64,000 bases of DNA from Octopus vulgaris (taxonomy: Eukaryota). Numbering within the stretch: the stretch's first letter is position 1; every line of letters starts with the position of its first letter. The DNA lies in assembly GCA_951406725.2 (NCBI GenBank), contig OX597828.1, positions 35,030,001 to 35,094,000 on the forward strand. Direction: 5' to 3'. The notes under the pieces are model-generated. The model did not search any database, was not told where the DNA came from, and saw only the letters and a program-made list of their open reading frames with translations. The translations under genes and the position numbers were made by a program. Of the stretch, positions 963-46,781 are shown piece after piece.

Positions 963-1713
963 ATTACCCATTTTTCATCTTCGATCTCATTGTTTGTTTA
1001 CATTAGGCGTACTCGGAGACGAAACGTCGTAAAAAAAAAAATCAATGCTTGCTATAATCTCTATAGAAAAATCTGTAGAGATAAGCTTAGCAAGTTAAAG
1101 GGTAAAATGTGTTTGTGAGTTTTGGTAAGATCGAGCCTTGTGTGGAGAAGAAAAAATCTGACGTCTTAGGCCTGTTCGTTCGTCAGACAGAAAGAAAAAT
1201 ATTCTGGAGATGAGCAATTATTTTTTAATTCACGAATAGCGTTGCTAATGCAAGCCGCAAATAAGAGTTAGTGACGTCGGACATCGCTATGAACTTACAA
1301 TCTATTTATATAATTTAAGATAATGGTACTTTCATGCTAGGATAATAAGAAAGATGAATTACAATATAAAGAAGAATTACAAAACAATTCAGCAATAATA
1401 AGCTTAATTATAGAAATAAGTATGGGACACGGACCGGAAGTTGCTGCATCTGTGCATGATTATAAAAATGCTCTTCAAGGCATTAATTGCAACGAAGTAA
1501 ATTAAACGTTCAGAGTTTCGTCCCGTTCTGTGCCGTCTGCGTTGTTTATCTCTTCCTCCATCTGTGTGCACATGTGTTTGCAAATACACCTGTATGCATA
1601 TATATGCACGTAAACGTTTGCTTATATGTGTATGCATGTTTCTCTTGATTTTATTAATGTTGTTCTTCTCCCATGGACCCAGTAATTAAGGCCGTTATCA
1701 ATAAACATGCTAA

Positions 1714-2120
1714 GGGCGGCGCGTTGTTGGTAGAATCATTAGAGCGTCGGTTTAGAACTCTTTATATAAGGCGGCGAGCTGGCAGAGTCGTTAGCACGAC
1801 GGGCGAAATGCTTAGCGGTACTTCGGCTGCCGCTACGTTGTGAGTTCAAATTCCGCCGAGGTCGACTTTGCCTTTCATCTTTTCGGGGTCGATAAATTAA
1901 GTACCAGTTAAGCACTGGGGTCGATATAATCGACTTAATACCTATGTCTGTCCATGTTTGTCCCCTCTATGTTTAGCCCCTTGTGGGTAATAATGAAATA
2001 GGTTTAGAACTCTTTATACTCCAAGTTCAAATCCTTCTCACACCATCTCCATTTGTTTGTTTGTTTGTTTGTCCTTTCAAAGGTGAGAAAATTAAGTACC
2101 AGTCATGTACTGGAGTCGTT
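1714..2120 (+). mobile_element. Old A-type SINE interrupted by an A1 insertion
   Basis: Head ggcggcgcgttgttggtagaatcattagagcgtcgg at 1715-1750; body resumes after 2018 with agttcaaatcc...aaattaagtaccagt. Confidence 0.65.
1767..2000 (+). mobile_element. Full-length tRNA-derived SINE A1 with 18-bp TSD
   Basis: Head ggcggcgagctggcagagtcgttagc, B-box-like gagttcaaattcc, tail agccccttgtgggtaataatgaaata; perfect direct repeat ggtttagaactctttata at 1749-1766 and 2001-2018. Confidence 0.9.
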
Positions 2121-2229
2121 ATAAAACAGACACTTCCCTTTCCGCAAAATATCTGACGTTGTACCGACAGCATGAAATGATTAATGAATACGTTGAGTAA
2201 TTTCGACCAAAGCCTTTTGTGTGCGCGTG

Positions 2230-2235
2230 TAGTAT

Positions 2236-2270
<35 letters not shown>

Positions 2271-2410
2271 ACTGAAGTAGTAATTGTCGTAGTAGCAGTA
2301 ATTGTAGTAGTAGTAATTGTAGTAGTAGTTGTTGTAGTAGTAGTTGTAGTGGTAGTAGTAGTGGTTGTAGCAGTAGTAGTTGTAGTTGTAGTTGTAGTAG
2401 TAGTAGCTGT
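2230..2410. repeat. (AGT)n/(TGT)n microsatellite
   Basis: Direct inspection; source of the poly-V and poly-L ORFs. Confidence 0.95.
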
Positions 2411-2419
2411 TTGGTCATT

Positions 2420-2610
2420 TACCGTCCAGAAGTCAGAGCTAATTGAGCAGAACTATAATCCAATTATGTTCCGGCTGTGATTGTCTCTTTTGGTATAGAC
2501 TTAGTGTATCTAGGACTATATCGTTCGATGCAACCTTATTTTATTTTGAGACTGTATGGAGTATTTCAATGGTGACTTATTTGTTATTTCCAGCATGTCC
2601 AACCGTGTCA
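2420..2610 (-). mobile_element. Degenerate family G interspersed repeat (SINE-like)
   Basis: Colinear similarity to 5300-5480, 28230-28415 and 56795-57015 (ggtcag...gagcagacctatgatc...gctatttctagcagg). Confidence 0.5.
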
Positions 2611-3285
2611 GTACAGTCTCCTATTAGTTACTGTTTCTGTTGTTGTTGCTGAAGTTTAGCTCCAGCCATTGCGGAGTTTGGACAGCCGTTGTGAACACAG
2701 GAACAACGGATCATTAATTTTGCTGCTATTAACATGTCCGCCATCAACGACACGATAAAAATGTATGTTTAGAATTCTTTCACGTGAGGTGTAAACTAAA
2801 TTGCAGAAATATATATAGGGCATCATGTGTGTACTTCAATATGAGTTATACATGCGTGCTGTATCCAGTTTGAAGTGTAACCACCTTCAGTAAAGTATAT
2901 CTGAGATGGGAGTGCTTGGCAGTAATGATAGAAAAAAACAGGTGAGAAAGGTAAACTAGACATGCGATTTTCTATTTATGGTTTGTTGAAGAGGTTGTCA
3001 ACCACTGCCGGATCCTAGAGTTAAAGATATTGTCAAACTGGGGCAAAGTATACTTCAGTGACCTAGGAACTGTAATTTCTTAAAAGCCATAATATACGGA
3101 AAGCTGCAAATGTAGGAATAAATCATTTATTACAAAATAGGGGTAGGATAGAAAAGTTCCAACCACAGCATCAACGTTTCGAATATCTAATTGTTAGTAT
3201 AATCAAAACAGAAAAAGTAAAAGGCTGTCCTGGAAGAATTAAACAGGAGCAACTTGCACAAACACTTTCAACATGTTTATGTATA

Positions 3286-3328
<43 letters not shown>

Positions 3329-5480: not shown

Positions 5481-5602
5481 ATACAGTTTTTCGTTATATC
5501 AGATATGGGTGTATGTGTACCTTTCTGTCTCTCTCTCCCCTCTCCCCCTCTCTCTCTCTCTATTTATCTATTTATCTGTCTACCTTCCTACCTACGTACC
5601 TT

Positions 5603-5899
5603 GTGGAGGCACATGGCCTAGTGGTTAGAGCAGCGGACTCGCAGTTGAGGGATCGCGGCTTCGAATCTCAGACCAGGCGATGTGTGTGTTTATGAGCAAA
5701 ACACCTAAGCTCCACGCAGCTACAGCAGAAGGTAATGACGAACTTTTTCGCCATAACTTTCTCTCACTCTTTCCTCCTGCATCTTGCAGCTCACCTGCGA
5801 CGAATCGGCGTCCCGTCCAGGTGGGGAACCTATACGCCAAAGAAACAGGGAAACCGACCTTTATGAGCCAGGCATGGCTCGAGAAGGAACAAACAACAA
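5603..5899 (+). mobile_element. SINE family D (tRNA-derived head)
   Basis: A box tggcctagtgg, B-box-like gcttcgaatctc; central cctgcgacgaatcggcgtcccgtccagg resembles V/Meta-type SINE core domains (from memory, unverified); ends in aacaaacaac. Confidence 0.85.
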
Positions 5900-19085: not shown

Positions 19086-19130
19086 TAAAATATGTATATA
19101 TTATTAAAAGTGTAATATATATATATATAT

Positions 19131-19298
19131 GAGTGGCTGTGTGGTAAATAGCTTGCTTACCAACCACATGATTCCGGGTTCAGTCCCACTGCATGACACC
19201 TTGGCAAGTGTCTTCTACTATGGCCTCGGGCCGACCAAAGCCTTGTGAGTGGATTTGGTAGACGGAAGCTGAAAGAAGCCCGTCGTGTATATATGTGT

Positions 19299-36262: not shown

Positions 36263-37167
36263 GTGGAGAGACAGGGAGGAAGAGAATGGATGGAGGAAGG
36301 GGAGAGAGTGGAGGGAAGAGAGAGGTATTGTCCCCAGTCATTAACTGGTGTCTTATTTATTGGAAGAGGCTTCATACATACATACATACATACATACATA
36401 TACATATATATAAAAATGTAACAAACGAAGAAAAAATTCTTTCCATGGAGTGTTAAACACCCAATTCTCTGGTACGTCAGTTGAATACCACAATAACTAT
36501 CTAACAATTTATTTATAATTTCATATAATATAATAAATATAATATGATATAATATAATATAATATAATATAATATAATGTAATGTAATATGTGGAGGCGC
36601 AATGGCCTAGTGGTTAGGGCAGCGGACTCGCGGTTTTAGAATCGCAGTTTCGATTCTCAGACCGGACGTTGTGAGTGTTTATTGAGCGAAAACACCTAAA
36701 GCTCCACGAGGCTCCGGCAGGGGGTGGTGGCGATCCCTGTTGTACTCTTTCGCCACAACTTTCTCTCACTCTTTCTTCTGTTGGCCTGCTCGCTTAGCCA
36801 GCGGGGTGGCGTCATTTGAAGGCTATAACAATGCCAAGCGCATTGCGACCAGCCTGGTCGGTCACGGTGATAATATAATATGATGTGATGTGATGCGATG
36901 CGATGCGATGTGATAAATATAATATAATATAATATAAGGTAAGATAACATAAAAAATTATTAAAAAACTAAAAAAAACAACAATTTGTTTCGACTTATAT
37001 TCATTATCTGATTTATGGGACCTGATATGTATTTGAATAGTTAACGCTCACGATCCTAAACGTAGGTATTTTGAACTAGTACGTTGCAATCTGACAGTCC
37101 TTTTACACGGAATTTCGTCTGTCTTTTTGAACCGAAACCCTGAAGAGACTTGTATACATGGATATGA
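32336..37167 (+). repeat. Copy 2 of the ~4.8 kb direct duplication
   Basis: Begins exactly at the gap edge; colinear with 26952-31716. Confidence 0.95.
36591..36871 (+). mobile_element. SINE C present only in duplicate copy 2, inside (AATAT)n
   Basis: gtggaggcgcaatggcctagtgg head; copy 1 has an uninterrupted (AATAT)n at ~31435-31497. Confidence 0.92.
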
Positions 37168-45502: not shown

Positions 45503-45655
45503 GGGAGAAATCAGAGAGATGTAATAATGAGGGAATTATCCCCAGTCGGAGATATTAGTATATTGCAGCTTGTCGAGAATGGGGGAAGGATCAAAGTAAA
45601 AGAGGTATGCGTTACGTAGCGCCATGATCGAATGAATAACGCAGTTATAGGTAAT

Positions 45656-45814
45656 TATTTACATTATTTACATTAGACGGATATTTGTCCTCATCTTGTT
45701 TGTTGTTAACACAACGTTTTGGCTGATATACCCTCCAGGCTTCATCGGGTGTGTTGGGGAAATTTCGAACATTGGTTCTCATTCCTAAGGTAATTTTCGA
45801 TATTGCTATTATTA

Positions 45815-45887
<73 letters not shown>

Positions 45888-45890
45888 TAT

Positions 45891-45923
<33 letters not shown>

Positions 45924-45964
45924 TATTATTATTACTATTATTATTATTATTATTATTATTACTA

Positions 45965-45995
<31 letters not shown>

Positions 45996-46093
45996 TATTA
46001 TTATTATTATTATTATTCAGGTCACAGCCTGGAATCGAACTCGGAATCTTGGGGTTAGAAGCCAGCGCTCTTAACCACTACGCCATATTCCTG
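45656..46093 (-). mobile_element. SINE family H: tRNA-Arg(TCT)-like head + (AAT)n + hammerhead-like tail, 13-bp TSD
   Basis: Head TGGCGTAGTGG (A box), CT-TCT-AA loop, GAGTTCGATTCC (B box) at 46017-46092; TSD agttataggtaat at 45643-45655 and 46094-46106; hammerhead-like motif at 45709-45752. Confidence 0.85.
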
Positions 46094-46380
46094 AGTTATA
46101 GGTAATGCCCATCAGCAGCTTCAAATGAGAATATTCAATAATTCATGGCAAGGAATTGTGGATATTACCAGTTCCAATTTCGAACAGAGAAACCTGGTCA
46201 CTTCTGGCCGCCTCTGATAGACAATCTAACAATAACGCTTTCAGTTGTAGTTTAAACCGGAATTTTGGCGGCAAACCAAACTGAACGCTCATAGAACCTG
46301 CTTATTGTTTTACGTCAGTTGACAAAAACGCCTTATGTATTCTGCTTGTATGTATGTATGTATGTATGTATGTATGTATA

Positions 46381-46781
46381 CTCTTTTACTCTTTTACTTG
46401 TTTCAGTCATTTGACTGCGGCCATGCTGGAGCACCGCCTTTAGTCGAGCAAATGGACCCCGGGACTTATTCATTGTAAGCCCAGTACTTATTCTATCGGT
46501 CTCTTTTGCCGAACCGCTAGGTGACGGGGACGTAAACACACCAGCATCGGTTGTCAAGCAATGCTAGGGGGACAAACACAGACACACAAACATACACATA
46601 CATATATATACATATATACGACAGGCTTCTTTCAGTTTCCGTCTACTAAACCCACTCAAAGGCATTGGTCGGCCCGAGGCTATAGCAGAAGACACTTGCC
46701 CAAGATGTCACGCAGTGGGACTGAACCCGGAACCATGTGGCTGGTAAGCAAGCTACTTAAAACACAGCCACTCCTGCGCCT
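46381..46781 (-). mobile_element. Near-intact SINE B inserted in (TATG)n
   Basis: Full head to tail; (TATG)n on both flanks. Confidence 0.92.

Follow-up and report, generated by a model that had tools for sequence, protein, structure and literature searches.

Penelope-like elements (PLEs) are marked by an inverted, 5'-truncated copy and a one-sided tail of 30–40 bp (PMC8557442), and their minimal hammerhead ribozymes carry a base between positions 9 and 10.1 and a palindrome, and occur as opposite-strand pairs 100–700 bp apart (PMC4209133). Purified protein of a Poseidon element cuts and extends both strands, using two reverse transcriptase (RT) start sites within the start of the open reading frame (ORF); the reaction does not depend on hammerhead cleavage, and no difference in start site between the strands was reported (PMC11167929). 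Here we describe a PLE family of Octopus vulgaris, represented by one copy in a 64-kb stretch of contig OX597828.1 (assembly GCA_951406725.2, positions 35,030,001 to 35,094,000; hereafter the window), whose pseudo-long terminal repeat (pseudo-LTR) includes a tRNA-derived segment with A and B boxes, a putative promoter for RNA polymerase III (Pol III). An earlier note, made from the letters of the window alone, had taken this copy for a non-autonomous short interspersed element (SINE) combining a tRNA head with a Penelope-type hammerhead tail.

With Penelope and Poseidon the octopus family shares partial tandems that act as pseudo-LTRs, an inverted 5'-truncated copy, a tail of ~30 nt at one end, a minimal hammerhead overlapping the ORF start and two RT start sites within that ORF start. 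It differs from them in its pseudo-LTR, which carries the tRNA segment and an (AAT)n tract, in a pile-up of copy 5' ends at the tRNA start and in a sense strand free of runs of four or more T. A small-RNA-derived, putative Pol III promoter in the terminal repeat of a retroelement is also found in TRIMp3 (Helenus, Ajax and Cassandra), where a SINE insertion into the repeat was proposed as its origin (PMC10886601); these are non-autonomous LTR elements, whereas the octopus repeat belongs to an autonomous, protein-coding PLE. The schistosome repeats Sm-alpha and Sj-alpha (PMC6765202) are comparable in that the type I hammerhead of Sm-alpha lies behind a promoter of Pol III type, and animal non-LTR retrozymes in that they are non-coding units related to PLE pseudo-LTRs (bioRxiv 10.64898/2026.07.22.740005). 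The schistosome repeats and the retrozymes, however, form head-to-tail tandems without an ORF, while the octopus copies are dispersed, single or head to head, and are pieces of a coding element.

The octopus SINEs OK, OR1 and OR2 likewise have tRNA heads, and short copies of the PLE would be annotated as such a SINE; OR1 or OR2 has been described as a CORE-SINE (PMC4824008, PMC4758252), a description from which the present unit is set apart by having no middle domain besides (AAT)n. We found no description of a PLE with a tRNA-derived pseudo-LTR segment, judging mostly from search listings (Repbase, Dfam or SINEBase may list the family or its short form), and the passages seen of papers on cephalopod and mollusc repeats do not mention one (PMC13282606, PMC8967140, PMC6962438, PMC4758252, PMC4824008). 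The window copy is a decayed remnant of an element whose class is known, and the variant seems to be undescribed. What is new here is the 5' pile-up at the tRNA start and the T-run-free sense strand; head-to-head pairs with long and short ends are already known for Penelope.

The unit belongs to an autonomous Penelope-like element

The earlier note had suggested checking whether head and tail recur together and looking for an autonomous PLE that shares the 3' ~130 nt, and both were found in the 2.8-Gb genome. Among the 30 best tail matches (query included), the head lies upstream in 19, and at one of the loci at which the autonomous element first became apparent (L080 and L091), namely L091, the end of an ORF continues straight into the head. 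A search with the ORF end recovered the head directly behind the ORF in 28 of 30 loci (including the query and five segmental duplicates), and one with the ORF start recovered the forward tail immediately 5' of it in 26 of 30 (query included). Three complete elements, at L196, L281 and L283, have a pseudo-LTR on both sides of the ORF, in partial tandem. Because the ORF end joins the head and the tail joins the ORF start across loci, the unit is almost certainly the pseudo-LTR, plus the ORF start, of an autonomous PLE, with the head as an integral part; the proposal that it was mobilised by Penelope-like rather than long interspersed element (LINE) machinery is supported.

The consensus of this element is 2,631 nt long (coverage 24–50) and contains one ORF of 835 codons, followed by the stop, 29 nt, the tRNA head, the (AAT)n tract, the hammerhead and the next ORF start. 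The ATG sits inside what had been called the tail, 34 nt upstream of the hammerhead core, whereas the ORF of PAc, the PLE of Anolis carolinensis, starts at stem II (PMC11167929). The tail corresponds to the first ~50 codons of the ORF, and its 9-nt repeat, previously taken for a terminal tail, is in-frame coding sequence, beyond which the family continues for ~30 nt and then into the ORF.

Real copies match RVT_1 with E-values of 1.4e-10 and 5.5e-10, and 1,016 homologues of the 835-aa protein are found at E<=0.001; with one exception, the best 120 listed carry precomputed assignments to PF00078, PF28514 and/or PF26215. The closest listed homologues share 60–72% identity with it, an Anolis sagrei protein 40%, and the protein of a second, 781-aa octopus PLE family 28%. 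A CX2-5CxxC linker between RT and endonuclease, the lack of which is a criterion for the Penelope/Poseidon group (PMC8557442), is absent from the translation by eye; in this, and in having a single ORF with RT and a putative C-terminal endonuclease-like domain, the element resembles PAc (PMC11167929) and the Drosophila virilis Penelope. The ~60%-identical homologues in the P0021 cluster include proteins of the barnacle Amphibalanus amphitrite, a high value for so distant a host, and horizontal transfer is a possible cause. A sister-family search with a 72%-identical foreign protein returned the same octopus PLE family in 30 of 30 loci.

We also compared heads attached to an ORF (n=66) with heads of copies that begin at the tRNA start (n=57). 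None of 228 sites is diagnostic (lowest P 0.008, uncorrected), and divergence is alike, at 5.6% and 4.7%, respectively, within a family that has decayed by ~5% from its consensus. Because there are no diagnostic sites and divergence is similar, the head comparison gives no sign of a separate SINE lineage.

Two other candidate partners were rejected. At L014, L019 and L023, LINE 3' ends, which we take to resemble Dong/R4, are inserted in the AAT tract upstream of the tail; as the partner, this LINE was discarded, lying in L014 inside the tract, between head and tail. The 781-aa family, recovered with the Pfam GIY-YIG profile, does not share the tail and was used purely as a control. It is much younger than the family described here (L271–L276 and L042; ORF of L271 at 964–3306), with many intact 781-codon frames and a CxxC linker, and carries a hammerhead-like motif with a core starting UUGAU and the palindrome ACAUGU, behind tandem pseudo-LTR repeats of 60–70 nt.

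The window copy

In window coordinates, and read on the minus strand, the copy spans 45643–46106 and is laid out as follows.

46094..46106, minus strand: 5' target-site duplication, 13 bp, a perfect match to 45643–45655 and found nowhere else in the window
46091..46093, minus strand: CAG trinucleotide, presumably either a decayed head start or a 3-nt stub of an inverted long-end arm
46018..46092, minus strand: tRNA-derived pseudo-LTR segment, 94.6% identical to the PLE consensus
46075..46085, minus strand: A box, within the tRNA-derived segment
46032..46040, minus strand: B box, within the tRNA-derived segment
45802..46017, minus strand: (AAT)n microsatellite of the pseudo-LTR, expanded in this copy
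45656..45801, minus strand: pseudo-LTR, 3' part, in which the PLE ORF begins; identity to positions 1–149 of the consensus 94%
45708..45753, minus strand: minimal type I hammerhead, predicted to be inactive in this copy, with its cleavage site predicted between 45713 and 45712
45643..45655, minus strand: 3' target-site duplication, 13 bp, a perfect match to 46094–46106

The perfect duplication, the two boxes and the ~200-nt (AAT)n tract had all been noticed beforehand and hold. Tandem Repeats Finder delimits the tract at 45807–46017 (70.3 copies, ~210 nt), compared with 9–147 nt in most other copies. The ATG lies at 45780–45782, in a segment that in long copies reads in frame into the 835-aa ORF, and the 3' boundary is the "short" end site of the family. 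Stubs comparable to the CAG occur in L074 (8 nt) and L247 (~5 nt).

The tRNA-like head

With a score of 43, against 27±2 for shuffled sequences, the head is tRNA-like. It is closest to tRNA-Arg(TCT) and tRNA-Arg(TCG) of the genome (both 43, with six other tRNAs at 36–40), which makes an arginine origin plausible among the few isotypes sampled. The assignment to tRNA-Arg(TCT) stands only in this respect: the TCT anticodon is private to the window copy, and CTACTAA is the loop sequence in 114 of 171 heads of the family. The A and B boxes of the head likely form a Pol III promoter.

The hammerhead

The 20-nt stem II sequence has 6,547 exact matches in the genome (control: 0), and a pattern requiring an intact core has 5,521 (control: 2), although a few of 100 listed pattern matches belong to other families. 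Among them are minimal hammerheads with another stem II (G000:C1:4515044, C1:10992075 and C1:19721012), which point to further PLE families. At L062, the two arms of an insertion enclose, ~150–250 nt 5' of stem II, a segment whose hammerhead-like motif is of another kind; this segment may derive from a further PLE family, either co-copied with the arms or acquired afterwards.

We built the family consensus from 68 copies reached through ORF searches and thus unselected for the motif, of which 29 have an intact core. It reads CUGAUGA, an extra A, a 5-bp stem II, GAAA, CG, UU and stem I, and so combines the CUGANGA, GAAA and NUH elements with an extra base after A9, the G10.1–C11.1 pair and a palindrome in place of helix III. 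The family motif matches the PLE-type minimal hammerhead surmised in the earlier note, and any self-cleavage would be expected as a dimer or with the help of protein. The commonest variants outside CpG fall at unconstrained positions, namely N7 (16/75) and loop 2 (11/76); the stems cannot covary because the copies decay from one young family.

The window copy lacks the complete core. As the earlier note had counted, it carries three substitutions, U4C (45747), G10.2C (45739) and G12A (45720), the first of which is present in 4 of 75 hammerheads, together with a fourth change at 45753, where stem I ends on its outer side. Loss of G12 predicts a hammerhead without catalysis. Because G12, and also U4 and G10.2, are substituted, this hammerhead is predicted to be inactive, as was suspected from the start; its stem II is unfolded (z +1.07), compared with z -1.73 in the intact copy L081. 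Cofolding of two hammerheads gave no clear dimer fold. In the RNA that is copied, the hammerhead likely stays uncut, because the copies span the cut site.

Insertion anatomy

From the first 95 of the 6,547 exact matches to stem II, which all lie on contig C1, we obtained 87 loci after merging of pairs and 83 after removal of four segmental duplicates. Forty of these are head-to-head pairs with both outer ends, ten more have an inverted part and 33 are forward-only; the 50 inverted loci are a lower bound, as some chains are interrupted by long AAT tracts. Two complete units chained in the same orientation were seen at none of the 87 loci.

The outer 3' ends fall at two fixed sites ~30 nt apart, at about 141–148 and 173 of the tail, unlike the simple-repeat or poly(A) tail at a fixed end by which a tRNA-derived SINE is recognised. 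Of 38 pairs that could be classified for end type (two of the 40 could not), 33 combine a long with a short end, four are short/short and one is long/long (Fisher P 5e-6). In ORF-bearing insertions the ORF arm is short-ended in 27 of 41 cases and the inverted arm long-ended in 13 of 18. Loose ends recurred at both 3' end sites when three RNA runs from an organism of the same label and one contig run were compared with L166. The rule of one start per arm in genomic copies may extend the in vitro result on Poseidon.

At least 8 bp of flank are duplicated in 25 of the 40 pairs, whereas mismatched flanks share as much in 3.1% of cases. The target duplications found in the family measure 8–14 bp and usually surround an inverted pair, so that the window copy, although indeed bounded by a duplication, is atypical as a single, tightly flanked unit. 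Derived variants are more often common to the two arms of one insertion than to random pairs (7.1% vs 3.2±1.0%), and the two arms are concordant at N7 in 56 of 63 cases, a pattern that fits one RNA, two co-active RNAs or gene conversion alike.

The 5' boundary and transcription

Seventy-six arms extend into the head, of which 52 get as far as position +4 relative to the tRNA start; 37 of the 52 stop between -6 and +4. The stop rate in this interval is 9.2% per nt, as opposed to 0.4% in the head interior and 0.25–0.28% further upstream, in the ORF and untranslated region. One arm ends at the tRNA start in 28 of the 50 inverted loci, both arms in two and neither in 20. Two copies that begin there, L247 at -1 and L264 at +4, read on into the ORF. 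The pile-up is most simply explained by an RNA that begins just 5' of the A box.

A run of four T terminates metazoan Pol III transcripts. The 2,631-nt consensus contains no run of at least four T on the sense strand and 30 on the antisense strand, where synonymous shuffling of the ORF leads one to expect 2.9 sense runs (P 0.03 for zero). In the control PLE family, of equal T content, 8–9 such runs occur over 2,343 nt; the counts for four LINE-type ORF families are 2, 3, 7 and 13, giving 1.7–5.3 per kb for the five control families. Together, the 5' pile-up and the absence of sense-strand T runs suggest Pol III transcription from the pseudo-LTR, and we consider it probable that the short copies arise from Pol III transcripts. 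That the whole autonomous element is transcribed in this way, into a terminator-free, uncapped 2.6-kb RNA serving as both message and template, with the same promoter making each truncated end piece SINE-like, is a more tentative proposition, which we regard as possible but doubtful.

Several observations weigh against this interpretation. Stop rates beside the boundary are also raised (1.5% per nt at +5 to +20 and 2.7% at -20 to -7), and a short palindrome overlaps the tRNA start, where microhomology may sharpen the pile-up. The T-run result is a single test on a consensus whose sense strand is A-rich. Among six ORF-bearing elements with an upstream pseudo-LTR reaching +4, two stop there and four enter the upstream ORF, and both boxes are intact in 23 of 57 tRNA-start heads vs 22 of 66 ORF-attached heads, without clear enrichment. 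ARAGORN called no tRNA gene in the window or in nine head-bearing loci, and Rfam yielded only chance matches, with neither a tRNA nor a hammerhead called in the window stretch or in two near-consensus copies. On the protein side, Pfam GIY-YIG (PF01541) had no match on the C-terminal domain of P0001, in which a degenerate VY..Y.GET motif is visible and for which 2 of the 120 listed homologues carry PF01541. The Pol III transcription proposed in the earlier note has indirect support, from copy ends and sequence; the RNA runs on L166, which has a deletion at the hammerhead, cover the two directions equally deeply, without peaks of read starts or ends, and are uninformative on this point.

Competing explanations

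The data are best explained, in our view with a fair degree of probability, by a PLE that has a tRNA-derived promoter in its pseudo-LTR, starts transcription by Pol III at the head and inserts as paired complementary DNAs (cDNAs). Read from the structure, the ends, the duplications, the 5' boundary and the missing T runs, the cycle would proceed as follows. Pol III would initiate at the head, placing the RNA 5' end at the tRNA start; the PLE protein would cut both target strands, priming one cDNA per strand at two fixed starts; one cDNA would extend as far as that 5' end; and the two cDNAs would be linked in head-to-head orientation. A SINE-like source, re-entering the cycle in trans, could thereby be provided by any copy whose A and B boxes are intact. 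The short copies are likely SINE-like in function, not SINEs by descent.

The strongest alternative, which we nevertheless judge unlikely, is an ordinary PLE pseudo-LTR driven by RNA polymerase II (Pol II), in which the tRNA-like segment is an inert passenger, for instance an old SINE head with its (AAT)n inserted into a master copy, and the pile-up of 5' ends reflects a Pol II start or a junction favoured by the palindrome. Apart from the head, all structural features of the octopus element are indeed standard for PLEs (PMC8557442, PMC4209133), the boundary coincides with the palindrome and the T-run test is modest. A palindrome-favoured junction agrees less well with the partner arms, which end far from the palindrome in 20 of the 28 one-arm loci, and an inert segment agrees less well with zero T runs, compared with 2–13 per control ORF. 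The boundary, moreover, lies ~7–13 nt upstream of the A box, at the distance expected for a Pol III start.

An independent tRNA-derived SINE that acquired a PLE tail and was mobilised in trans, with the sharing by the PLE a later coincidence, is very improbable. Most copies are short and start at the tRNA start, and the 6,547 exact stem II matches contrast with 461 RT and 337 N-terminal first-look candidates, numbers that come from different measures; the whole unit, head included, nevertheless belongs to the autonomous PLE, and the lack of diagnostic sites and the divergence values reported above leave this model, which was the central claim of the earlier note, largely refuted. We give hardly any credence to a palindromic DNA transposon (a miniature inverted-repeat transposable element) with CAGT-starting inverted termini, rejected for its end asymmetry and ORF continuity: many insertions are inverted pairs, with the long end showing CAGT on the outer strand and sometimes lying beside TA, but the ends are unlike (long/long in 1 of 38 pairs), the centre is variable, the duplications are 8–14 bp and not TA, and the sequence beyond the long end enters the RT ORF.

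Other repeats and duplications

Further tRNA-headed repeats lie in the window at 5600–5760, 19130–19260, 36590–36760 and 46375–46780; they represent at least two families and have only the A and B boxes in common with the octopus PLE. Segmental duplications with identical flanks were found on C1 and C31 (L104/L107/L109, L106/L108, L127/L128/L130/L131 and L167/L168/L170–L172), and tRNA-Cys and tRNA-Thr gene clusters at L216, L221 and L238.

Implications

If Pol III drives this PLE, the element would be a counter-example to the view that autonomous retroelements need Pol II, as stated by the author of the TRIMp3 work for the autonomous partners of those elements (PMC10886601, section 4.2), and how an uncapped RNA gets translated would become a question; for RNA viruses, cap-independent translation induced by ribozymes has been reported (PMC13725137). 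Should transcription of the whole element by Pol III prove true, it would offer a direct route by which a SINE could originate inside its own autonomous partner. Whatever the polymerase, the family preserves a large number of genomic examples of PLE insertion, a poorly understood reaction, with one cDNA per strand, each with its own fixed start, and a measurable duplication, so that the two-start model derived in vitro can be tested on thousands of insertions. For the octopus genome, it means that thousands of apparent tRNA-SINEs are fragments of a PLE and are easily misannotated.
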